A stretch of DNA of 64,000 nt from Acidobacteriota bacterium (lineage in GTDB: Bacteria > Acidobacteriota > Terriglobia > Terriglobales > SCQP01), in NCBI GenBank assembly GCA_027459505.1, contig DAIDIE010000021.1, forward strand, positions 16,803 through 80,802, written 5' to 3'. The translations under genes and the position numbers were made by a program. Positions within the stretch are counted from its first letter, which is position 1, and each line of letters starts with the position of its first letter. The notes under the pieces are model-generated. The model was not told where the DNA came from, did no database searches, and worked only from the letters and a program-made list of their open reading frames with translations. Positions 5,014-58,128 of the stretch are shown here, one piece after another.

Positions 5014-5246
5014 ATAAGCGGCCTCCCGGACGGCAGCCGCCTCGCTGCCATTGTGCTCAAAAAGCAACTCCGGCTGCCACCCTCTCCCCCTGCGCTCCCT
5101 CTCCATGAACTGTAAAGCACTTCCTGACAACAGGTTGTGCAGGGGCCGGCGTATGGCCGTTGACACTCCGGTGGGGCTCAGCGAAAATATACTTTCTTGT
5201 CCAGATTCCCGGAGAAGAGCATTTCACCCCCAAGGGGAAGCCAGGC

Positions 5247-6521
5247 ATGGGCCTACTGGAGCAGTTGGTCATTACGCTGCGAGAGGGCGTCGAAGCGGCG
5301 TTGATTGTCGCTATTGCCCTCACTTATCTGCGCAAGATCCAGCGCACCGACCTGAACCGGGTGGTCTATTACGCCTTGGGCGGCGCCGTGGCGGTTTCAA
5401 TGGCGGCAGCGGTGCTGATGACCCGTCTGAACCTGAGCGACGACCGCTTTGAAGGCTGGGTCATGCTGGTCGCAGGCATCTTTGTCTCCTCCATGGTGTT
5501 CTGGATGGCGCGCGCCGGAAAGACGATGAAGCGGGAGATCGAGGCACGCATGGCTAACGTCTCGGCCACCGGCCTGTTCCTGCTGATTTTCTTTATGGTG
5601 CTGCGCGAAGGCGTCGAAACTGTCCTCATGTTGACCGCCATCGCGTTGAATACCACCGCTGTGCTGGCGTGGTTAGGCTCGGTGATCGGACTGGGGCTGG
5701 CGCTGCTGTTCGCGGTCGCCTTTGTCAAGGGCAGCATCAAGGTCCCGCTCGGAAGCTTTTTCCGAATCACGTCAGCCATCCTGGCTGTCATCGCCGCACA
5801 GCTTTTTATTTCCGGGTTTCATGAGCTGGCCGAAGCTGGTGTGCTGCCTTCATCCCGGGCGGAGATGGCGCTGATTGGCCCGATTGTCCGCAATGATGTC
5901 TTCTTCTTTGTGGTGATTCTGGGGTTGACGGCCTTGTTGCTCCTGCGGGAGCGTTTTGCTTTGCGTCCGGCGAGTGCGATTCCGGCTGACGCCAGCCCGG
6001 CGCAGAAGCGGCGCATTGCCGCCGACAACCGGCGGCAACGGCTGTGGTCCATGGCCGCCTTCGTGGGATCGTTTGCGATACTACTGCTCATTGGGGCGGA
6101 GTTCGCCTACGCACGCTCGGTTCGCGCTGTGACACCAGCCGAGCCGGTGCGGCCCTTGCTGGGCATTGTGCGTATTCCTCTCAGCCAGGTTTCCGATGGC
6201 AAGTTTCATCGCTTTGTCGCGCAGGCCGGCAACCAGCGCATTCATTTTTTTGCCATCCGGCGGCCGAACGGAACCATCGCGGTAGCGCTCGATGCCTGCG
6301 CCATCTGCGGGAGCCTGGGATATTACCAGCAGGGCGGACAGGTGCATTGCCGCAATTGCGATGCCCCGGTCAACACTGGATCGATCGGGATGAAGGGCGG
6401 CTGCAATCCGATTCCGCTGACCTACCAGCAGCAGGATGATGCGCTGGAAGTCACCATTACGGCTTTGGCGCAGGCCAGCCGGACGATAGCGAGCAACGGC
6501 GGGGCCAACCAGGGGCATTAA
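5247..6521 (+). CDS. FTR1-family iron permease fused to a DUF2318-like Cys-rich domain
   Basis: Two REGxE motifs (TLREGVEAALIV, VLREGVETVLML) are typical of FTR1/EfeU. The C-terminal DACAICGSLGYYQQGGQVHCRNCDAPV..GGCNPIPL matches the DUF2318 ('Fe-S-containing protein') pattern. The start was set at ATG 5247; the ORF opens at TTG 5160. Confidence 0.8.
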   Translation: MGLLEQLVITLREGVEAALIVAIALTYLRKIQRTDLNRVVYYALGGAVAVSMAAAVLMTRLNLSDDRFEGWVMLVAGIFVSSMVFWMARAGKTMKREIEARMANVSATGLFLLIFFMVLREGVETVLMLTAIALNTTAVLAWLGSVIGLGLALLFAVAFVKGSIKVPLGSFFRITSAILAVIAAQLFISGFHELAEAGVLPSSRAEMALIGPIVRNDVFFFVVILGLTALLLLRERFALRPASAIPADASPAQKRRIAADNRRQRLWSMAAFVGSFAILLLIGAEFAYARSVRAVTPAEPVRPLLGIVRIPLSQVSDGKFHRFVAQAGNQRIHFFAIRRPNGTIAVALDACAICGSLGYYQQGGQVHCRNCDAPVNTGSIGMKGGCNPIPLTYQQQDDALEVTITALAQASRTIASNGGANQGH

Positions 6522-38666: not shown

Positions 38667-38836
38667 GCGGCGCGTCGGTGCAGCGTGGGGCCGCCATTCC
38701 AACAGACAGCGCAATGTTTGTGAACCCGGGAGAATTCGTGGCCCTGCAGCGGCTTAAAGGAGCAGCAGCAGCAGCGTCGTTTGCCGTTGCTGGGTGGGAT
38801 CCCCTCCCGAATCGATGGAGTCGATGGCTTACCGCG

Positions 38837-39220
38837 CTAGTAGAGCTGCAGGGTGGTTAACCGCGCGATCCGTTCGAAATCCCGATCCAAAGACAATTGC
38901 GTCGCGCCCGCGTCGATAGCGACTTCCGCAATAAGGGCATCCGTCGTGGAAAGGGTCACTCCCCTGACGCGAGCTCAGCAGTAAACTTCCGCGGCGTGAC
39001 GGTAGGCCTCAAAGCCGCCAGGCTCCAAAAGCGGCCAGGACCGAAGCTGTGCCTCGACCTCCTCAACGCCGCCACGGAGTCCTTGCACAATTTCGGCAAC
39101 AACGATTCCGGTGATTGCCAGAGGGGCACGCTGAGAGAGCAAACGTTCCAGTTCGCGACACGTTGCGGAACTGAACGAGCCAAAGAAGTCAATCCAAACG
39201 GACGTATCCACCAGAATCAA
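38837..39220 (-). pseudogene. vapC: PIN-domain toxin vapC interrupted by an in-frame TGA (38975-38977)
   Basis: N-terminal MILVDTSVWIDFF. After the TGA the same frame continues ARVRGVTLSTTDALIAEVAIDAGATQLSLDRDFERI, the conserved PIN C-terminal half with two acidic catalytic residues. Confidence 0.7.
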
Positions 39221-39417
39221 AAGCGGTTCCCGCGCATTTTCTTGAGATCGCCTTTCCAGATGCGGCTTCCACGAAATCGCAATATCCCCTTGCGTTCTTC
39301 AGCTTGGATGAGTTGTTGAAGCGTCTGCTCGACGATCTCGCGCTTGGCCTGCAAGCCGGTCAGCTCTCGTGCACGTGCGATGAGCTCATCACGTAAAAAT
39401 ATGTTAGTGCGGCCCAT
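39217..39417 (-). CDS. vapB: VapB-type antitoxin (DUF2191 / RHH-like)
   Basis: MGRTNIFLRDELIARARELTG..KREIVEQTL. Overlaps the vapC start by 4 nt. Confidence 0.75.
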   Translation of the reverse strand: MGRTNIFLRDELIARARELTGLQAKREIVEQTLQQLIQAEERKGILRFRGSRIWKGDLKKMRGNRF

Positions 39418-39796
39418 AGGCCCACGATACACCATTTCTACAGAGCTCTGGTGTATTCAGGGTTCAACCGTCCGAGCAGCGGGGCGCGAAAGGCGGAAGC
39501 GCCGCTTGGCGTGCTTCCGCTGTGGAGTGCGGCCCACGCCCGTCCCAACTAAGCAGACGGCTTTGATGAGCGACCCGGGAGACTTCCGCGGCCCTTCAAC
39601 TGCGATGCGCCCCAGCAGCAGACTATGCCTCCTGGGATTAAGCTTGAGTGGCTCCTTCGAGCTGCGTGCCCGAACCCTTATTTTTGAAGGGTGTTACGGC
39701 GAGACGACCTGAGCGGAAAGATTTCAACCGCCACGGTGGCGATCGCGCCGTTGAGCGTGAACTAGGAAGAAGCCAGAGGCTGCTATAGTTGTGGGC

Positions 39797-40240
39797 ATGA
39801 AAGCCAGCGCTCTTGGTCAGGATCTGCCGGGCACGATGAGCTTGTTGCGGGTGCTGCAGATCGCGTTGCTGGGCGCCTCCGGGGTGGTCATACTGTTTAC
39901 GCCGCGGGTTCACGCAAATGCCAGCGCTCAGTTCCGACCCGAGCTCCTGTATCTATTTCTGGCCTTGGCCATCGTGGACGTGCTGCTTATAGCCTGGGCA
40001 CAATTGAAGGTGGCCGGAGGGGCGCGCGCCAGACTGCAAAAAGACGGTAGCGACCCCCAGGCGCTCAACGAGTTGCGCCGCGGCCACCTCATCTCAGCTG
40101 TCATTGCCGAATCGGTGGTCCTTTACGGGCTGGTGGTGCACGCGTTGGGTGGACCCATTGGGGCCTCGTGGATCTTTTTCTGCCTGGGACTGCTGCTGTT
40201 TGCCATCTCTTGGCCGAGAGCGATCACGCGAACAGTATGA
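39797..40240 (+). CDS. hypothetical membrane protein (about 4 TM helices)
   Basis: ORF with four hydrophobic helices. No family recognised. A GTG at 39791 is an alternative start. Confidence 0.5.
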   Translation: MKASALGQDLPGTMSLLRVLQIALLGASGVVILFTPRVHANASAQFRPELLYLFLALAIVDVLLIAWAQLKVAGGARARLQKDGSDPQALNELRRGHLISAVIAESVVLYGLVVHALGGPIGASWIFFCLGLLLFAISWPRAITRTV

Positions 40241-40284: not shown

Positions 40285-40776
40285 TTACCCGGCGCGGCGC
40301 CGTTCAGGATGCAGAGCTTCCGCATGCCAACCGGGGTTCAGCCAGTGGTGGTTTTCCCACACGAATACTTCCGACACACGGCCCGAACTGTTCGTCACCT
40401 TTGTTCCCTGTTGAATTGCCAGCCGGTACTCACTCCACACAACTGCCACGGTCCCAAGCCACTGGATCCTGGTGTGCAGAAAGCGCAACTTCAACAGCCG
40501 CGCACGCGAGGCGCGGAACTGCGCCGACGAGGCCAGCATCTGTGCACGAGTGCTCCAGCCCGGCTCTCCGGAACTCATCACCACCGCATCCGCAGGAACC
40601 AGGCGACGTAGCGCTGCCACATCTCCAGCAAACCAGGCCCGCCATACCTGCTCACGGACCTGCAGAAGCTCTTGCCGCCGCGCCTCTCTTTCCTGTCCCA
40701 GCGCCGCAATGGGCCGCAAAGCACAAAGCAGCAGTGCCAACCCTGCTACAAGCGCATTTATCCGTGTCGCTCGCAT
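40285..40776 (-). CDS. DUF4440 / SnoaL-like (NTF2 fold) secreted protein
   Basis: Signal peptide. W..W..GDVAALRRLV....S..G......Q pattern and a C-terminal ...VWENHHWL, typical of DUF4440. Confidence 0.65.
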   Translation of the reverse strand: MRATRINALVAGLALLLCALRPIAALGQEREARRQELLQVREQVWRAWFAGDVAALRRLVPADAVVMSSGEPGWSTRAQMLASSAQFRASRARLLKLRFLHTRIQWLGTVAVVWSEYRLAIQQGTKVTNSSGRVSEVFVWENHHWLNPGWHAEALHPERRRAG

Positions 40777-40822
40777 TCGGTGTTCCTTTCTTCAAACAAT
40801 AGCAGCATGCTATTGTCTTTGC

Positions 40823-41365
40823 GTGCCCCTCTTCCTGGCAGAACGCTTGGCGCCGTTACAACTTCCCGACTCGGACGGGACTCTGTTCCGGCTCGGGTCA
40901 CTGTGGGAGCGCACGCCGGCGGTGCTGGTTTTTCTGCGGCATTACGGTTGAATCTTTTGCCGCGAGCACGCCGCGCAGTTGCGCGAGCATCAGAGTGAAT
41001 TCGACGCGCTGGGAACCCGCCTGGCGGCCATCGGCCTAGGCGATGCCAACTACGCCCGCATGTTCCGCGAAAGCAGCGGCATCTCCTTCCCGCTTCTCAT
41101 CGACGAAGAACGCGCCGCCTATCGTGCCATCGGGCTGCGAAGCGGCAACCTGCTGCACCTGTTCAAGAAAGAGAACGCGGCGGCGCGGGCGCGAGCCCGA
41201 GAAGCGGGCTTTAAACAGGAACGCATGGGACGCCACCCCTTCCAACTCGGCGGCAGCCTGGTATTCGCCTCCGGCGGTAAGGAGCTGTTCCTGCACCGCA
41301 GCCACAGCTTTGGCGACAACGCCAGCATCGCCGAACTACTTGGCGCGCTGAGCAAAGCGAAATAG
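40823..41365 (+). CDS. peroxiredoxin-like (AhpC-TSA_2 / PRXL2-SelU family) protein with in-frame UGA, candidate selenoprotein
   Basis: Two ORF-track pieces (ending 40951 and starting 40979) are in the same frame. Joined, they read ...PAVLVFLRHYG-[TGA]-IFCREHAAQLREH..., so the TGA occupies the first Cys of the family's GCxxC redox motif. GTG 40823 is the only plausible start, so the start is uncertain. Confidence 0.6.
40949..40951 (+). other. in-frame TGA, candidate selenocysteine codon
   Basis: Sits at the CxxC first-Cys position. A small GC hairpin CGCGC-AGTT-GCGCG starts 20 nt downstream, with G and U in the loop. It is weak as a bacterial SECIS. Confidence 0.5.
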
Positions 41366-41681
41366 GTAGCGATAATACCCGGAGCAGCCTCATGAAGGCT
41401 GCGTCTCCCGTTAGAGACAGGGGAGCAGGCGGCCTGCTGTTCCGGCTGGTCCTCCGAAGCATGGAAGGGGCTGCTGCCTATTACCGTGCACATCGCCGGC
41501 AACAAAACGTTGTTGATTAAACTCCGGATCAGGAAGCCCACTAAGAGCCTGACGGTGCCGATCCCATCAGCTGCGAAGAAGGCGGTCGCGAACGAGTACG
41601 AGGAGATGCTGGTACACGTTCGACAGGCAAAGCATTAGCGGGAGCAGCGCTCAAACCGCGGTATCAGTTGGCCTGCAACAG

Positions 41682-42170
41682 CTAGTGCGGGATGGGGCCA
41701 ACGTTTGGCCAGTTGGCGCCGGCGGCGCCGGCCAATTGCGCCGCCAACAGCGAATCAATGACGAGACTGCCAAGCTCCGGATCTCCAAATTGAACTCTGA
41801 CTCCCGGAAACATTGACAGTTCTTCCATAACGGAGAGTTGACTCCATGGAACCAAAAAGCTCTTAGCAAATGGCCCAAAAACACGTAAAACGCCCAAACG
41901 CAAACCGGACGGACACACACTCACAGTGAGCACACCGTTCATGTTTGCGGCGGGACCCATGCGCCCACAAATAAATCGCAGGTGCAGAATGGGTGGCTCC
42001 GCTCGATCTGGAAAGGCCGCCATTAGCCGAAACCAGCCACAGGAGAGCAAAATCAGGGAGGTAACCAGAAGCCATATGGCCACGATTCCCAGCACAGCGA
42101 TGGAGACAACATCGAGCTTTGCCACGCTAAGGCCCTCCCGAGGCATATTAATACAAATAGCGGGGCACAT
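41682..42170 (-). CDS. hypothetical membrane protein
   Basis: ORF in an AT-richer patch with a TM hairpin (VVSIAVLGIVAIWLLVTSLILLSCGWF). No recognised family. Confidence 0.4.
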   Translation of the reverse strand: MCPAICINMPREGLSVAKLDVVSIAVLGIVAIWLLVTSLILLSCGWFRLMAAFPDRAEPPILHLRFICGRMGPAANMNGVLTVSVCPSGLRLGVLRVFGPFAKSFLVPWSQLSVMEELSMFPGVRVQFGDPELGSLVIDSLLAAQLAGAAGANWPNVGPIPH

Positions 42171-51280: not shown

Positions 51281-53161
51281 ATGCCAGTAGTCGACATCTC
51301 CCTGCAGCAACTCGATTCCACCAGTCACATCCATGAAGACATCCAGCGCCGCCTGGCGGCGGAGCGGGAACGCCTGTTGGCGGAGCTCAAAACGCAGTCT
51401 CCGCCGCAACATTTTGCCCGCCCGGCGGAGCGCCCCTTTACCGCCGCGGAACGATCGCGAGTGACCATCCTGTTTGGCGGCCTGACCTGGAAGCACGAAA
51501 GTGTTATCCGCGCCGCCTTTGAGGGGAGCGGCTATCGCTGCCAAATCCTTCCCGTGCCCAACGTAGCGGCCTTCCAGATCGGTAAGGAGTACGGCAACAA
51601 CGGCCAGTGCAACCCCACCTATTTCACGGTGGGAAACCTGGTGCAGTTTCTCAAGTCATTGCAAGCGCAGGGACTTTCGCGACAGCAGATTATTGATGAC
51701 TACGTTTTCTTTACGGCTGGATCCTGCGGACCGTGCCGTTTTGGCATGTACGAGGCGGAGTACCGGCTGGCCTTGCGCAATGCAGGCTTTGAAGGCTTCC
51801 GGGTACTGCTGTTCCAGCAGAACGAAGGGATTAAGGCCGCCTCTGGCGAGCCCGGGCTGAAGTTCACTGTGGACTTCGGTATGTCCATGTTCCACGCGCT
51901 CAACCTGGGCGACATTCTTAACGAAATGATTTACCGCATCCGCCCTTACGAGGCGGAGCCCGGAAAAACCGATCGCGTCTTCCGCGAGTTCATCGCGGAA
52001 CTCTGTCAGGAGATGCGCGAGCGGACTCCCTATGAAATCCTGCAACGCACGCCTCCCTGGATATCGCAGCGGCTGGCGCGCAACAAGAAGCTCAAAGACG
52101 TTCTCAACTCTTTTGCCAAGGTCGGTGATCACCTTTATGGCCGCCAGACAGAAGCCGCCTTGGCCCACTGCGCCGAGCGGCTGAGCACAATCGAAGTCGA
52201 TCGGCTCAAGGTGAAGCCGGTGGTGAAGATCATTGGCGAGTTCTGGGCGCAGATCACCGAAGGGGACGGCAATTTCAATATGTTCGCCTTCCTGGAGCGT
52301 GAGGGGGCGCAGGTTCTGGTTGAGCCGATTGCGACCTGGGTGCTTTACATGATGTATCAGGCGCGTATTCGCGCCATTGGACGTAAGGGGCTGGAGCAGG
52401 GTCTAGCCCAGTGGTGGGAGGTGGGCAAGAAGCTCCGGCAGGAGCTTGGCGTCGCCAGGACTTGCGCACTGTTGTCTCTTGGCGAACGCATTTATGCCAA
52501 CCAGTATCACCGCACGGTACGAGCGTTGGGCAATGTCGCGCATGAATTGATTTCGCAAAAGGAACTGGCGCGTTTGGCCCAACCCTACTACCACCGTCTG
52601 GCGCGTGGCGGTGAAGGGCATCTCGAAGTCGGCAAAAACATTTATTACACCGTGCATCATCTCTGCCACATGGTGCTGGCGCTGAAACCGTTTGGCTGCA
52701 TGCCGTCCTCGCAGTCGGACGGGGTGCAGTCGGCGGTGGCGAACCATTTCAAGGAAATGATCTTTTTGCCCATCGAGACTTCCGGAGAAGGCGAGATCAA
52801 TGCCCACAGCCGTGTGCAGATGGCTTTAGGCGAGGCCAAAGTGCGAGCCAAAGCCGAGTTCGAGCAATGCCTTTCGGGCACCGGGCGCACGCTGCCGCAA
52901 ATTCGCGATTACGTGGCGGCTCATCCGGAGTTGCGCCATCCGTTCTATCAGGTTCCGCACGTGGAAGGGGTGACGGGCGTGGCGGCACAGTTTGTGCTGC
53001 ACGTCGACCGGCTGATGAAGCGCGACGAGCGCGCCTGGCGGCGGACCAGAATCTTCCGGGAGGAGGGGGTGAGGCCCCTAGCTCTCTCTGCGCGTGTCCA
53101 GGTTCCAATGGCATCCGCCAAGGCGGATACAGCAAACGTTGTCGAGAAGAACTATGCCTGA
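51281..53161 (+). CDS. acyl-CoA dehydratase activase-related protein (DUF2229-type half, no ATPase domain)
   Basis: TILFGGLTWKHESVIRAAFEGSGY...NNGQCNPTYF...GSCGPCRFGMYEAEY...LKPFGCMPSSQSDG. Paralogous to the C-terminal part of the 1207-aa protein. Confidence 0.8.
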   Translation: MPVVDISLQQLDSTSHIHEDIQRRLAAERERLLAELKTQSPPQHFARPAERPFTAAERSRVTILFGGLTWKHESVIRAAFEGSGYRCQILPVPNVAAFQIGKEYGNNGQCNPTYFTVGNLVQFLKSLQAQGLSRQQIIDDYVFFTAGSCGPCRFGMYEAEYRLALRNAGFEGFRVLLFQQNEGIKAASGEPGLKFTVDFGMSMFHALNLGDILNEMIYRIRPYEAEPGKTDRVFREFIAELCQEMRERTPYEILQRTPPWISQRLARNKKLKDVLNSFAKVGDHLYGRQTEAALAHCAERLSTIEVDRLKVKPVVKIIGEFWAQITEGDGNFNMFAFLEREGAQVLVEPIATWVLYMMYQARIRAIGRKGLEQGLAQWWEVGKKLRQELGVARTCALLSLGERIYANQYHRTVRALGNVAHELISQKELARLAQPYYHRLARGGEGHLEVGKNIYYTVHHLCHMVLALKPFGCMPSSQSDGVQSAVANHFKEMIFLPIETSGEGEINAHSRVQMALGEAKVRAKAEFEQCLSGTGRTLPQIRDYVAAHPELRHPFYQVPHVEGVTGVAAQFVLHVDRLMKRDERAWRRTRIFREEGVRPLALSARVQVPMASAKADTANVVEKNYA

Positions 53162-54485
53162 ACCACAACTGCTGCCCAGCGCCCCGCCGGAGGGGTACAC
53201 CGCACCGGCTTACAAGCTGGACGTGCCGCTGCACGCCGTCCTCATGGGGAGCCAACCCGGTCAACGCTCGCTGCCGCCCATCCCGCCGCCCGGAGCGCCA
53301 CTGCAATCGCTGCCCGAGCCGGTGTTTCCGCAACGTCCCGAACTGCTGGGTGAGGATAACCCGCGCGACCCGGACTGGAGCTTGCCGGCGCATCAGCGGC
53401 GTCACTGGACGCCACACCAGATCGTGCACACCTTGCAGGGCTGGCTGGTTCCCTATATGAAGTCGCGGGTCAAGCCGGGCGACTTCCATCCCCTGATCGC
53501 TTACCTGTTCACCGAGTGGAAATGTAATCTCGACTGCAATTACTGCTGGGCGTTTGACAATCGCGTCAAAGGAATGAACGAGGATGTCGCGCGGCGGTCG
53601 ATCGACTGGCTTTTTGATCACGATTGCCGTGTGCTGGCGCTGATGGGGGGCGAGCCGCTGCTGCGGCCGGATTTCGCGCACAAGGTGATTTACTACGCGG
53701 CCAAGCGCGGCATGTGGGTTTACCTGCCCACCAATGGGCGCCTGATGCGCGAAGACGTGATTGACAAGCTGGCCGATGCGGGGCTGGCGACGTTAAACCT
53801 CGCCGTCGACGCGGTAGACATCAAGCCCGGATTGCCCAAGGCGCTGGCGCCCATCCGCAACTACTTCGATTACCTGGTGAAGCGGCAGTATCGCTACGGT
53901 TATTCCGTCTTTTTCAACGTCAATATCTGCCGCAACAACCTCGATGACGTCCGCCAGCTCACTGAGATCGCGAGGGACAACGGCATTGCGACGGACTACC
54001 ACGTCTGCGAAACGCCATTGACGGAACAGTCGCACTTCCGCCATTTAAACGACAACCCCACCTACATCCGTCCGGAGGACTGGCCGCTGGTGGATGAGGT
54101 GCTGGACTGGCTGATTGAGAAGCAGAAGGGCGGTTACCGCATGCTGAACTCGACCAGCCGACTGGCGCAGATGAAGACCTTCATGCGCAGCGGCATGAAT
54201 GAACCCTGGAACTGCCGGGCCGGCCAGAACTCGCTGATCATTCGCACCGATGGCAGTCTGGCGCCCTGCTTTCCCATGTATTCGGCCACCTACGATTGGG
54301 GGCACATCGAGAAGCAGAAGTTTGAAACGGCCCAGCTCAACCAGATGAAAGAGTCGTGCCAGCAGCACTGCTTCTCTACTCTGAATCACATTCTGGGTTA
54401 CTGCTATGACGATGGGCGCGTAATTCGCACCTTCTTCCGGCAAGCGCTGCGCGGTTTCCAGGGCATCGAGGGCAACCTCGAATAG
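53154..54485 (+). CDS. radical SAM protein with SPASM/twitch-like C-terminal Cys cluster
   Basis: CNLDCNYC (53523-53546), GGEPLL, and CRAGQNSLIIRTDGSLAPC...CQQHC...C. ATG 53154 overlaps the upstream stop by 8 nt. About 115 aa of Pro-rich sequence precede the core. Confidence 0.85.
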   Translation: MPEPQLLPSAPPEGYTAPAYKLDVPLHAVLMGSQPGQRSLPPIPPPGAPLQSLPEPVFPQRPELLGEDNPRDPDWSLPAHQRRHWTPHQIVHTLQGWLVPYMKSRVKPGDFHPLIAYLFTEWKCNLDCNYCWAFDNRVKGMNEDVARRSIDWLFDHDCRVLALMGGEPLLRPDFAHKVIYYAAKRGMWVYLPTNGRLMREDVIDKLADAGLATLNLAVDAVDIKPGLPKALAPIRNYFDYLVKRQYRYGYSVFFNVNICRNNLDDVRQLTEIARDNGIATDYHVCETPLTEQSHFRHLNDNPTYIRPEDWPLVDEVLDWLIEKQKGGYRMLNSTSRLAQMKTFMRSGMNEPWNCRAGQNSLIIRTDGSLAPCFPMYSATYDWGHIEKQKFETAQLNQMKESCQQHCFSTLNHILGYCYDDGRVIRTFFRQALRGFQGIEGNLE

Positions 54486-54504
54486 AAACTTTGGGAGAAG
54501 ATGC

Positions 54505-57500
54505 ATGCCTTGTGGCAGCGGCTGCGGACAGCGTGACCATGGGACGAGCGCGGGGCGGGAGAGCGCTATCGACGTCGGTATTGGCGCGCTGGTGAAACCC
54601 GCCAGCATGAAGCAGAAGGTAGCGGTGCGCCCAGCGGGTCGGTTTGAAGGCCGCTACCTGATGGGCATGGATGTGGGCTCGACCACCGTGAAGGCGGTGC
54701 TGGTGGAGGCGGGCAGCGATCAGGTCGTCTGGCAGGACTACCAGCGCCACGAAACCAAGCAGCCGGAAAAGGTTCTTGAGTTCCTGGAGAGGATGGAGCA
54801 GGATGCCGGGGTTGACATCAGCAACACCCGCGTCTTTGTCACCGGCTCGGGCGGCGGCTCATTGGCGGCGCTGCTGGGCGCCAAGTTCGTCCAGGAGGTC
54901 ACCGCCGTCTCGCTAGCCGTGGAGAAGCTGCATCCCGAGGTGAACTCGGTCATCGAACTGGGCGGTCAGGACGCCAAGATTATCGTCTTCCAAAAGGACG
55001 AAAGCACGGGGCGCAAGAAAAAGATTCCATCGATGAACGACAAATGCGCCGGCGGCACGGGCGCGGTCATCGATAAGATCAACGCGAAGCTGAAAATTCC
55101 GGTCGAGCAGCTCAGTGATCAAGGTTATTACGGACTCAAGCTGCATCCGGTGGCGGGCAAGTGCGGCGTGTTCGCCGAGACTGACATCAACGGACTGCAG
55201 AAACAGGGCATTCCTCCCGATCAACTCATGGCATCGCTGTTTGACGCGATTGTGATGCAGAACCTTTCGGTGCTGACCCGGGGACATACGCTGCGCCCAC
55301 ACGTTTTGCTGCTGGGCGGGCCCAATACGTTTATCCGCGGCATGCAGGAAGCCTGGCGGGCAAACATTCCCAAAACCTGGCAGGAGCGCAAGGTGCAGGT
55401 TCCGGAGGGACTGAGCGCCGAGGAACTGATCAAGGTTCCCGAAAACGCGCAATACTATGCGGCGCTGGGAGCAGTGGAATTCGGGCGAGCGGAAGAGGAG
55501 CCGGTGGGGCGCTACGCCGGGCGGGAGGCGCTGCAGGACTACATTGTGTTTGGCCGTCAGAAGGAAAAAGAAGAGTCGGGGGGCTCCGGGCTGAGCGGGT
55601 CGCCGGAGGAGTTGGCAGCGTTCAAGGAGCGTTACAGCATTCCCGCGTTCCGGCCGGCCGCGATCAGCGGAATGACGGAGCTGGAAGGTTTCATCGGCGT
55701 CGATGGTGGCTCGACCTCGACCAAAGCCGTGGTGCTCAATGCGGAGGGCGAGGTCCTGTTCAAGGCTTACCAGCTCTCTAACGGCAACCCCATTCAAGAC
55801 ACCATGGACATGTTTGCCTCGCTCCGCCAGCAGGTGGAGGAGCGTGGCGCGCGGTTGAAGGTGCTCGGCGTGGGGACCACCGGCTATGCCAAAGACATCC
55901 TGCGGGACATCCTGCACGCGGATGTGGCGCTGGTGGAGACGGTGGCGCATACCGAATCGGCACGGCGCTTTTACGAGGACCCGCATGTGATTGTCGACGT
56001 GGGCGGGCAGGACATTAAGCTGATCGTGCTGAAGGACGGGCGGGTGAAAGACTTCCGTCTGAACACGCAATGCTCGGCGGGCAACGGCTACTTTCTGCAA
56101 TCGACGGCGGAGGGCTTTGGCCTGGACGTGAACCAATACGCTGATCTTGCCTTCCAGGCGCAGAGCATGCCGCTCTTCGGTTATGGCTGCGCGGTGTTCA
56201 TGCAGTCCGACATTGTGAATTTCCAGCGCCAGGGCTGGAAGCCGGAGGAGATTCTGGCGGGACTGGCGGCGGTGCTGCCGAAAAACATTTTTCTGTATGT
56301 CGCCAGCATCCCCAACCTGGCCAAGCTCGGCTCCCGGTTTGTGCTGCAGGGCGGGACCCAGAAGAACATTGCCGCCGTCAAGGCCGAGGTGGACTTCATC
56401 CACTCCCACTTTCATGGCAGCGAGCGGCAGCCGGAAGTCATCGTTCACCAGCATTGTGGCGAATCCGGCGCCATTGGGGCGGCCGTGGAGGCGATCCGCT
56501 TGTGGCGTCATGGACGTGCGACCAGCTTCATCGGACTCGATGCCGTGCAATCGATTCGCTACCGCACCACCCGCAATGAGAATACGCGCTGCTATTTCTG
56601 CAAGAACAACTGTCTGCGGACGTTCATTGACGTCAGCACAGTGCCGCTGGAACAGTGGCAGCAGCCAACGTTTAAATCGAAGGTGCCGTTGGAGGCGGGA
56701 CAGCAGCGGCTGATCATCTCGACTTGCGAAAAAGGACAGGTCGAGGATGTGGGCGCCATGCGCAACATCAAGGCGGGTCTGGATGCGCTCAAGAACGCAC
56801 ACCCCAACTTTGTGGACATCGCGGCGCGCGAAGTCTGGCGGCCCCGCAATCCGGCGAAAGTCGCCGATCCGATCCCCAGCCGGGTCTGGACGCGCGCGGC
56901 GCGCGAGCGGGCGCAACTCATGAGAAAACGTTCCAGCATGCGCATCGGGATGCCGCGCGTGCTCAACATGTACGTCTACGCGCCACTGTTCAGCGCCTAC
57001 TTCGAGAGCCTCGGAATTGAACCGGAGAACCTGGTCTACTCCGATTTCACCAACCACGACATGTACAAGGCGGGAGCGGGCCGCGGCGCGATCGACCCCT
57101 GCTTCCCTTCCAAGATCGGCATTCCACATGTTTACGACCTGCTCTTTGTGAAGCACGCGAAAAAGCCGCTCAATGCCATCTTCTTTCCTATGATCGACGT
57201 GCTGCACACCTGCCTGGTCAACGCGGTGGGCAGCAACGCCTGCCCGACCGTGACCGCGACGCCAGAAACGGTGAAAGCGGCTTTCGTCAAAGAGGGTGAC
57301 ATCTTCGCCGAGCGCGGCGTTTTGTACGTCGATCCCATCGTCGATCTGAAAGACCGCAAACTGTTCGCGCGGCAGATGCTGGAGGCCTGGGGGCCGGTGC
57401 TGGGATTGTCGCCGGAGGAAAATGAACGCGCGGTGGCGGCCGGTTACCGGGGGCTGAGCGACTATGAAAGCGATATCCGCCGCCGCGCCCGCGCCGTCCT

Positions 57501-58128
57501 GGACCAACTGGAGGCGGAGAACCGTGTCGGCATTGTCATGCTCGGGCGCCCGTATCACCATGATCCCGGGTTGAACCACGAAATCATGGACGAGTTCCAG
57601 AAGCTTGGCTACCCGATGTTTTCGCAAAGCACACTGCCGCTGGATGAGGACCTGCTGGAACGGCTATTCGGCGAGGATGTCCGCGCGGGACGCATCAGCC
57701 ATCCCATGGACATCACCGATGTCTGGAAAAACGCCTACTCGGCCAGTACCAACCATAAAATATGGGCGGCGAAGTTCACCGCGCGCCATCCCAATCTGGT
57801 GGCATTGGAGGTCTCGAACTTCAAGTGCGGCCATGACGCGCCCATCTACTCCACCATTGAAGACATTATTGAGAGTTCCGGAACGCCGTATTTCGCGTTC
57901 AAGGATCTCGACGAAAACAAACCAACCGGTTCGATTCGCATACGCGTGGAAACGATTGATTACTTCCTCAAGCGTTACCGCGAGGACTTGGCACAGCGCG
58001 CCCAGCGCGGCAGTTTGACCATGGAAGACATTGAACGGCAACTGGCGGAAATGGAACGCGAGCTGCTGCGCGAGGCGGGCCTGGCGCCTGGCGCGGTATC
58101 AGCCGGAAGCGCCATGAGCGCCGCCTGA
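54505..58128 (+). CDS. double BcrAD/BadFG-type activase ATPase fused to a DUF2229 domain (PlsA/HgdC-activase-like)
   Basis: Two actin-fold phosphate-1 motifs, GMDVGSTTVKAV (from 54664) and GVDGGSTSTKAV (from 55696). C-terminal IGMPRVLNMYVYAPLFSAYFESLG...DPCFPSK...SNFKCGHDAP. RBS GGGAGAAG lies before the ATG. Confidence 0.9.
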   Translation: MPCGSGCGQRDHGTSAGRESAIDVGIGALVKPASMKQKVAVRPAGRFEGRYLMGMDVGSTTVKAVLVEAGSDQVVWQDYQRHETKQPEKVLEFLERMEQDAGVDISNTRVFVTGSGGGSLAALLGAKFVQEVTAVSLAVEKLHPEVNSVIELGGQDAKIIVFQKDESTGRKKKIPSMNDKCAGGTGAVIDKINAKLKIPVEQLSDQGYYGLKLHPVAGKCGVFAETDINGLQKQGIPPDQLMASLFDAIVMQNLSVLTRGHTLRPHVLLLGGPNTFIRGMQEAWRANIPKTWQERKVQVPEGLSAEELIKVPENAQYYAALGAVEFGRAEEEPVGRYAGREALQDYIVFGRQKEKEESGGSGLSGSPEELAAFKERYSIPAFRPAAISGMTELEGFIGVDGGSTSTKAVVLNAEGEVLFKAYQLSNGNPIQDTMDMFASLRQQVEERGARLKVLGVGTTGYAKDILRDILHADVALVETVAHTESARRFYEDPHVIVDVGGQDIKLIVLKDGRVKDFRLNTQCSAGNGYFLQSTAEGFGLDVNQYADLAFQAQSMPLFGYGCAVFMQSDIVNFQRQGWKPEEILAGLAAVLPKNIFLYVASIPNLAKLGSRFVLQGGTQKNIAAVKAEVDFIHSHFHGSERQPEVIVHQHCGESGAIGAAVEAIRLWRHGRATSFIGLDAVQSIRYRTTRNENTRCYFCKNNCLRTFIDVSTVPLEQWQQPTFKSKVPLEAGQQRLIISTCEKGQVEDVGAMRNIKAGLDALKNAHPNFVDIAAREVWRPRNPAKVADPIPSRVWTRAARERAQLMRKRSSMRIGMPRVLNMYVYAPLFSAYFESLGIEPENLVYSDFTNHDMYKAGAGRGAIDPCFPSKIGIPHVYDLLFVKHAKKPLNAIFFPMIDVLHTCLVNAVGSNACPTVTATPETVKAAFVKEGDIFAERGVLYVDPIVDLKDRKLFARQMLEAWGPVLGLSPEENERAVAAGYRGLSDYESDIRRRARAVLDQLEAENRVGIVMLGRPYHHDPGLNHEIMDEFQKLGYPMFSQSTLPLDEDLLERLFGEDVRAGRISHPMDITDVWKNAYSASTNHKIWAAKFTARHPNLVALEVSNFKCGHDAPIYSTIEDIIESSGTPYFAFKDLDENKPTGSIRIRVETIDYFLKRYREDLAQRAQRGSLTMEDIERQLAEMERELLREAGLAPGAVSAGSAMSAA

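Follow-up and report, generated by a model that had tools for sequence, protein, structure and literature searches.

Gene frame and current annotation

The DNA analysed here is a stretch of 64,000 nucleotides from an Acidobacteriota bacterium (the whole stretch is referred to as the window), and this work concerns a gene on its forward strand, at positions 40823-41365, for a peroxiredoxin-like redox protein with a TGA codon in its reading frame. The locus presents a single frame of 180 codons followed by TAG, and its translation holds one internal stop, the TGA at 40949-40951. Around this codon the translation runs ...TPAVLVFLRHYG*IFCREHAAQLREHQSEFDALG..., or, with the codon written out in its context, ...AVLVFLRHYG-TGA-IFCREHAAQLREH.... 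In the list of open reading frames (ORFs) the gene is split in two, as the first ORF stops with this TGA and the next listed one opens 30 nt further on, at TTG 40979, in the same frame. The initial annotation, made from the sequence alone, had read the ORFs ending at 40951 and starting at 40979 as one 180-codon protein and had proposed that the TGA probably encodes selenocysteine (Sec, U) and does not mark a pseudogene. The coordinates and the translation confirm the single frame, and the comparison with related genes, namely the shared TGA, the selection on both halves, the downstream hairpin and the contrast with cysteine-containing forms, supports the proposal of Sec. Our reading of the locus, to which we give a probability of about 0.88, is that UGA 43 encodes selenocysteine by means of a conserved hairpin. 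The features on which the discussion relies are the following.

40823-41365, forward strand: predicted complete selenoprotein gene with GTG start, Sec at codon 43 of 180 and TAG stop (41363-41365), for a thioredoxin-fold AhpC-TSA_2 / SelL-related redox protein
40949-40951, forward strand: in-frame TGA, predicted to be read as selenocysteine 43, residue 1 of the U-I-F-C redox motif; TGA in the window and in 80/80 species loci, in a column occupied by Cys in the Cys forms and by Cys44 in human PRXL2B
40952-40985, forward strand: zone of suppressed synonymous change, codons 44-54, with a third-position diversity of 0.166 against 0.57-0.62 elsewhere
40958-40960, forward strand: TGC, Cys46, the putative resolving Cys of UxxC; TGC in 80/80 aligned genes
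40958-40968, forward strand: possible 3-bp mini-hairpin UGC-CGCGA-GCA, suggested by the RNAalifold consensus
40972-40985, forward strand: candidate apical hairpin of a bacterial selenocysteine insertion sequence (bSECIS), CGCGC (40972-40976)-AGUU (40977-40980)-GCGCG (40981-40985), from folding and conservation
40979-41365, forward strand: 128-residue fragment (P0001) annotated by gene callers, with its TTG start within the hairpin, from the ORF list and homologue records

We regard GTG 40823 as the homologous start, because 80 relatives start with Met or Val at an equal distance from a conserved LPD motif. Upstream of this GTG, the frame overlaps a divergent DUF4440/SnoaL gene at 40285-40776. 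In public records, that of the window included, the gene is carried as a fragment of 125-137 residues devoid of the active site, and the homologues are deposited under the names "AhpC/TSA family protein" or "hypothetical protein" (examples of 134-residue "AhpC/TSA family protein" entries at NCBI are MGA9041965.1, HEV8385897.1 and HLJ27373.1). Since these homologue records are truncated entries, the current annotation misses the Sec codon. A scan of the window for a second gene with an in-frame TGA gave no credible candidate.

Conservation of the TGA and selection on both halves of the gene

A protein search returned 773 relatives, and lengths and alignment columns were judged on the best 120 of them. 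Approximately 29 of these 120 are full length (167-205 residues), and most of those that were aligned have G-C-I-F-C at the motif. The remaining ones measure 122-143 residues and start either directly after the TGA column or at the LREH position, and they therefore bear the signature of gene callers halted by an in-frame TGA. In a scan of one genome per species, 358 loci were found to encode a relative, of which the best 80 were used for the comparisons below (81 genes with that of the window). These 80 loci belong mostly to Terriglobia, Bryobacteraceae, Ca. Angelobacter and Acidoferrum, and a few are labelled Binatus, Thermoanaerobaculia, Vicinamibacteraceae, "delta proteobacterium" or Verrucomicrobiia.

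In 80/80 loci, which represent as many species, the codon at this place is TGA, and the 42 codons upstream of it are kept in frame. As judged from the aligned sequences, such sharing of the TGA is far beyond chance. The mean pairwise difference at codon positions 1, 2 and 3 amounts to 0.29, 0.20 and 0.62 in codons 3-42, upstream of the TGA, and to 0.25, 0.19 and 0.57 in codons 55-100 and 0.25, 0.21 and 0.59 in codons 101-175, downstream of it. As the pattern is alike on either side of the TGA, both halves are translated and under the same purifying selection.

These results bear on the simplest alternative, a pseudogene or a sequencing error, in which a peroxiredoxin-like gene with a CxxC motif has been inactivated by a nonsense mutation and decays on both sides of it. 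The fact that gene callers split the gene and annotate a fragment only, together with the lack of any Sec machinery seen in the window, agrees with such a scenario. On the other hand, it leaves unexplained why the same codon is TGA in all the other species, why neither frameshifts nor further stops occur, and why the codon-position pattern of purifying selection extends over both halves, so that we regard it as extremely improbable. The decay of the two halves, which the initial annotation had named as an outcome that would speak against Sec, is excluded by the codon-position diversity, and the conservation downstream of the TGA, which it had also asked about, is present there as it is upstream.

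At the TGA column itself, the homologues compared as the initial annotation had suggested have Cys or TGA, which favours Sec. Two full-length homologues are to be set beside this, P0014 and P0017, in which the residue aligned with Sec is Gly (RHYG-G-IFC) or Arg (QHDG-R-IFC); such residues could be the outcome of single-base changes of TGA, to GGA and CGA respectively. Genome-wide reassignment of TGA was considered and ruled out, because TGA is an ordinary stop elsewhere in the window, where it ends 16 of the 39 long stop-to-stop ORFs.

Protein family, fold and active site

When Cys is put in at the TGA, the translated protein hits Pfam AhpC-TSA_2 (PF13911) at 1.2e-18 (68 bits, with a gathering score of 27), while the matches to AhpC-TSA (2.6e-12) and Redoxin (9e-8) are both above the gathering score as well. 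The NCBIfam model NF040769, "SelL-related redox protein", is matched with 128.9 bits against a curated cut-off of 120, the alignment covering residues 10-175 and, of the 173 model positions, 4-172. Among solved structures, the closest by sequence is human prostamide/prostaglandin F synthase PRXL2B (9us9; E 3e-11, residues 19-166), and its G-C-V-V-C aligns on G-U-I-F-C. The family proposed in the initial annotation (AhpC-TSA_2 / PRXL2, that is, SelU-like) is thus upheld, with PRXL2B as the best solved relative and the CxxC of the latter aligned on UxxC.

The fold was modelled with AlphaFold on a Cys form with 62% identity to the window protein (P0006), and not on the window protein itself, from an alignment of 28 sequences. 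The model of P0006 (predicted local distance difference test, pLDDT, 93; predicted template modelling score, pTM, 0.89) shows the classical active-site geometry of the thioredoxin fold, in that residues 33-37 form a strand, the first motif Cys is residue 43 and residues 44-55 form a helix. In a Foldseek search with this model, PRXL2B (human prostaglandin F synthase) ranks first, with template modelling (TM) scores of 0.79/0.88, and is followed by BCP/AhpE peroxiredoxins and ResA. The predicted architecture is a thioredoxin-like fold with the UxxC motif at the N-terminus of helix alpha1. No classical peroxiredoxin (Prx/BCP/AhpC) motif PxxxT/SxxC(U) was found around the active site FLRHYG-U-IFC, and the scores on the PrxQ/BCP equivalog models, 17-20 bits, lie far below the cut-offs of 140-260. 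For both of these reasons, the protein is considered an oxidoreductase of the CxxC type, here UxxC, and not a classical peroxiredoxin. Selenoprotein L proper, which holds two Sec residues in a UxxU motif, was likewise rejected, as the second position is TGC (Cys) in 80/80 genes.

In regard to the chemistry, the product of the gene would be a thiol/selenol oxidoreductase of 180 residues with the active site Sec43-Ile-Phe-Cys46. From the start of helix alpha1, the selenolate of Sec43 would attack a substrate in oxidised form, which could be a disulfide, a peroxide or similar, and Cys46 would resolve the intermediate as a selenenylsulfide. According to what is known of the family, a thioredoxin- or glutathione-type reductant would then re-reduce the protein.

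A constrained hairpin downstream of the TGA

The codons that follow the TGA are frozen to a degree found nowhere else in the gene. Across the 80 aligned genes, other conserved amino acid columns show an ordinary synonymous scatter, with a codon entropy of about 0.6-2.3 bits, whereas in the frozen block Cys46 is TGC in 80/80 genes, Glu48 is GAG in 76/77, Ala51 is GCG and Gln52 is CAG in 80/80 each, and Leu53 is TTG and Arg54 is CGC in 79/80 each. The TTG of codon 53 is a rare Leu codon, while four to six codons, with a preference for CTG/CTC, are found in other invariant Leu columns. From this pattern of codon use, an RNA-level constraint overlies the coding sequence at codons 44-54.

The 13-mer GCGCAGTTGCGCG, which forms the hairpin of 40972-40985, is intact in 79/81 Sec genes. 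One of the two exceptions, L013, has CGT in place of CGC in the 3' strand of the stem, with the pairing retained as G-U, and in the other, L007, a change from TTG to TTA opens the closing pair. The initial annotation had noticed this hairpin, CGCGC-AGTT-GCGCG, 20 nt after the TGA, and had suggested folding of the region; the same hairpin is the RNAalifold consensus and appears in the minimum free energy (MFE) fold of 64/75 single sequences. The 18-nt core has a free energy of -9.0 kcal/mol, and 24 nt reach -11.9 kcal/mol in the window, where the hairpin can extend to 40970-40988 via the pairs G22-C40 and C23-G39 around a bulged A. The stem counts 5 bp and gains a sixth in 67/80 genes. At pair 24-37, 70 genes have C-G and 8 have U-G, and at pair 23-38 U-A or U-G is present in 67/80. 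Furthermore, GCC at codon 50 occurs in five genes, and in four of them, that of the window included, codon 55 is GAG, which permits C23-G39 (p=0.019); this combination gives a weak hint of covariation.

According to the published bSECIS model, the loop measures 3-9 nt and has a G in its first two positions, usually followed by G or U, the upper stem has 4-16 bp, the distance from UGA to loop is 16-37 nt and the MFE is at most -7.5 kcal/mol (PMC13188914, Fig. 2 legend). The candidate hairpin fits every one of these constraints, with its loop AGUU (G at loop position 2), a stem of 5-6 bp, a loop lying 25 nt after the UGA and a free energy of -9 kcal/mol or lower, and it is therefore predicted to be a legitimate minimal bSECIS. 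The caution in the initial annotation that it is short for a bacterial SECIS thus does not hold, and this stretch is the one under the strongest synonymous constraint in the gene. The UGA would then be recoded by the bacterial SelB / tRNA-Sec route, with this compact element within the coding sequence as the directing signal.

A second constrained stretch, UGCCGCGAG at 40958-40966 (+10 to +18 after the UGA), lies outside the main hairpin, and in it the third positions of Cys46 and Glu48 are frozen. These two otherwise free third codon positions make up the pair C12-G18 (counted from the U of UGA) of the possible mini-hairpin, and the combination of C12 with G18 occurs in 78/80 genes. As both are invariant, the mini-hairpin is beyond a covariation test.

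Conservation of the TTG within the hairpin could also be explained differently, by a short product that starts at this codon or just after the TGA, the 42 upstream codons being a separate small ORF and the TTG being kept as a start codon. The presence of TTG in 79/80 genes, its use as the annotated start in the window and the occurrence of ATG or GTG right after the TGA in some homologues agree with this explanation. However, codon 44 is ATC, ATT or ATA, and no start codon, in 73/80 genes, and codons 44-52, which precede the TTG, encode a conserved peptide (IFCREHVAQ) whose homologous counterpart in the full-length relatives and in PRXL2B is the CxxC helix. A product from codon 53 would be deprived of strands beta1-beta3 and of the entire active site of the modelled fold. 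Likewise, no purine-rich ribosome-binding site precedes the TTG, where the conserved flank is GCGCAG, and a start codon would not explain the conservation of GCG, CAG and CGC. All this makes internal initiation very unlikely.

Cysteine-containing homologues

The DNA of eight independent Cys-containing homologues served as a control for the constraint on the hairpin. The 13-mer is kept in 2/8 Cys forms and in 78/80 Sec genes (Fisher p=1.4e-6; the Sec count is 79/81 once L075 is included). Among the six Cys forms in which it is not kept, L086 reads GCC-CGG-CTC-CGC and L084 reads GCT-CAG-CTA-CGT at the corresponding place, while changes in the others are CTG-CGG (L082), CGG (L085), GCT (L089) and GAG (L081/L083). 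As the 13-mer is relaxed in Cys forms, the RNA constraint is tied to the TGA and not to the protein sequence.

The two Cys forms that keep it, L087 (583-1125) and L088 (1322-1870), have TGC at the Sec column and the GCGCAGTTGCGCG hairpin intact. They look like recent conversions from Sec to Cys that still carry a fossil SECIS; alternatively, they are possibly the result of TGA/TGC polymorphism at the assembly level.

Selenocysteine machinery and the identity of the inserted residue

Several observations weigh against the assignment of Sec. Searches of the 64-kb window and of approximately 1 Mb of related loci revealed no selA, selB, selC or selD; for the window, the initial annotation had already stated as much, and the tRNA, Rfam and Pfam scans agree. 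ARAGORN found no tRNA gene in the window and no tRNA-Sec in the window or in any of 89 loci, and motif scans of approximately 1 Mb of related DNA gave no SelD (G[C/U]GCK), no SelA (SGDKLLGGPQ-like) and no EF-Tu-type GTPase. The hairpin is invariant and thus shows almost no compensatory covariation, so that its support comes from the conservation of synonymous sites and from the contrast with the Cys forms. Its 81-nt single-sequence fold is no more stable than shuffled sequences (z = +0.99), and for this reason thermodynamic stability alone was not taken as evidence. Finally, Rfam has no relevant family either in the whole window at gathering score or in 40900-41060 at E up to 10, the single match being a chance one to CRISPR-DR on the other strand.

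The lack of Sec genes near the related loci is expected if such genes are unlinked to the gene studied. Two window ORFs with the size of SelA and SelB were inspected and rejected, as the one of 463 residues (53094-54485) is a radical SAM/SPASM protein and the one of 626 residues (51281-53161) is an ORF with no Pfam match. As for the lineage, Acidobacteria were credited with three selenoprotein families in 2006 (PMC1794560). Occallatibacter riparius, an isolate of the Acidobacteriaceae, is counted among the Sec users, and its listed selenoproteins are AhpD-like, deiodinase-like and FdhA (PMC12013277), and Sec-type hydrogenases have been reported from metagenome-assembled genomes of Acidobacteriota (PMC13582414).

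In view of this, it is also conceivable that the UGA is read through with no involvement of selenium and that the residue put in is Cys (e.g. from a selC*-type tRNA-Cys), Trp or Gly; the hairpin could then stimulate read-through in a generic way or bind a SelB that works with a non-Sec tRNA. The Sec machinery of the source genome could be followed only as far as the 64-kb window reaches, and tRNA-Sec-like tRNAs charged with Cys are known from other bacterial phyla, as are unusual allo-tRNAs from Acidobacteria (PMC7609411; PMC13582414), all of which leaves room for such read-through. Against it stand the position of the codon, exactly at the Cys/Sec catalytic column, the fit of the hairpin to the SelB-type bSECIS model and the use of TGA as a normal stop in the window. 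Moreover, the selC* tRNA-Cys has been reported from Firmicutes, Thermodesulfobacteria, Nitrospirae and Proteobacteria, and not from Acidobacteria (PMC7609411). We consider read-through of this kind unlikely, if less so than a short product or a pseudogene, and the residue inserted at codon 43 would in our reading be Sec, with the hairpin as the presumed binding site of SelB.

Comparison with known selenoproteins and SECIS elements

Bacterial "Prx-like" UxxC selenoproteins were reportedly described by Kryukov and Gladyshev in 2004. They have been a recognised bacterial class since 2004-2005 (PMC1088965, Sargasso Sea 2005; PMC1794560). The gene of the window resembles them in its thioredoxin/peroxiredoxin-like fold, in the Sec-x-x-Cys that takes the place of CxxC, in the SECIS predicted within the coding sequence just after the UGA and in the existence of Cys homologues. 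In Dataset S1 of the Global Ocean Sampling (GOS) selenoproteome, several reads with ...VFHRHLG-U-LPCR.H..QL... appear, by the positions of the headings, to lie in the "Prx-like 1" block (PMC2398784). One GOS read, JCVI_READ_1095515484943 (...VFHRHLGULPCRRH...), aligns with the window protein over the full length at 32% identity (E 5e-29), with U at the corresponding position, and reaches 163 bits on NF040769; Sec members of the NF040769 family were therefore already published in the 2008 GOS dataset. In contrast to these marine sequences, the present clade, to which they are 32% identical, comes from Acidobacteriota of soil, peat and groundwater, and it has the motif RHYG-U-IFC-REH and an invariant SECIS sequence of its own. 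A catalogue of 119 prokaryotic selenoprotein families from 2026 does not list PF13911 or NF040769 by identifier (PMC13188914). It holds entries for PF00578 UxxC/UxxU, PF08534 UxxC and cd02970 UxxS (PMC13188914), one of which may cover the clade.

SelL is a peroxiredoxin-like selenoprotein that has also been reported from marine bacteria (PMC2397514; PMC2398784), and SELENOL is a family in which Sec and Cys alternate (PMC2397514). The window protein passes the cut-off of the SelL-related model NF040769 with nearly the whole model aligned. It is unlike SelL proper, which has U-x-x-U and thus a possible diselenide, since its second position is Cys (TGC in 80/80 genes), and the expected bond is therefore a selenenylsulfide. 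SELENOU / PRXL2 (PRXL2A/B/C; AhpC-TSA_2; PDB 9us9 and 9usa) provides the best match among solved structures both by sequence and by model, and this eukaryotic family likewise alternates between Sec and Cys at the motif position (PMC13134290). Unlike the bacterial gene, the eukaryotic PRXL2 members, only 21-24% identical to it, use a SECIS in the 3'-UTR, and nothing suggests a prostaglandin substrate in bacteria.

Like canonical bSECIS elements (e.g. that of E. coli fdhF) and the consensus model of bSECISearch, the candidate hairpin is a stem-loop within the coding sequence that follows the UGA, and its small apical loop has a G followed by U. It differs from them in being very compact, with an all-GC stem of 5-6 bp and a tetraloop and no conserved lower stem, and in a sequence that is essentially invariant over 81 genes from several phylum-level labels.

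Taken in this context, the gene, which is widely conserved among soil Acidobacteria, is very probably an ordinary further case of the known UxxC selenoprotein class, routinely cut in half by gene callers, and would not surprise a specialist. It reveals no new mechanism, and its use lies in the correction of annotation and in the record of selenium use in soil Acidobacteriota. Owing to the truncated records, hundreds of proteins of soil bacteria would be mis-described and the selenium use of Acidobacteriota under-counted. The clade would also provide a clean case of a UxxC thiol oxidoreductase that has kept its Sec, in at least 80 species of mostly aerobic soil bacteria. A recent review holds that aerobic bacteria rarely retain selenoproteins (PMC13188914). 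The SECIS "fossils" in two Cys forms suggest, in addition, that conversion from Sec to Cys has been recent.

A more far-reaching proposal is that the RHYG-U-IFC-REH clade of Acidobacteriota forms a distinct, uncatalogued selenoprotein subfamily, among the most widespread in largely aerobic soil bacteria, with a minimal invariant SECIS and an additional element at +10 to +18. We put this forward tentatively, as a possibility that is more doubtful than not. If it were true, it would indicate a lineage-specific mode of SelB recognition.

Genomic neighbourhood and other features of the window

Clustering of gene neighbours in the 81 loci revealed no universally conserved partner. A gene for a FabI-like enoyl-ACP reductase adjoins the selenoprotein gene in 31/81 loci, on either side and on either strand, which probably reflects synteny of a subclade and not a functional link, and the other recurrent "neighbours" are antisense artefacts. 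As the neighbours are not conserved beyond subclades, the context holds no hint of the substrate.

A scan for the sigma-70 consensus in 40600-41700 found no promoter. The selenoprotein gene is separated from the divergent DUF4440 gene by 46 bp. This gap holds, at 40796-40816, two perfectly complementary 9-bp arms set 3 nt apart (ACAATAGCA-gca-TGCTATTGT), an inverted repeat that overlaps a -10-like TATTGT ending 6 nt before the GTG start. This repeat is absent upstream of the 80 homologues and may be an operator specific to the source genome. In many homologues, TTGACA (about 50 nt upstream of the start), a spacer of about 17 nt and a -10 of the GAGAAT/AAAAT type ending about 6-8 nt before ATG/GTG were observed (L023, L024, L027, L029, L033, L041-L045, L052, L056, L062, L066-L068, L070, L071, L073, L075 and L078), and others have TACAAT or TAGATT at the place of the -10. 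Such spacing suggests that the family is often transcribed as a leaderless mRNA.

Elsewhere in the window, about 1.1 kb at 38667-39790, upstream of a small membrane-protein ORF (39791-40240), holds short overlapping ORFs only and has no Rfam match. At 51281-58128, the 626-residue ORF already mentioned is followed by the radical SAM/SPASM protein and then by a 1207-residue protein of the BcrAD_BadFG / DUF2229 "CoA enzyme activase" type (54505-58128), and the three may represent a radical-enzyme cluster. Finally, FTR1 iron permease and FtrD-like membrane iron-sulfur domains are joined in a single ORF at 5160-6521.

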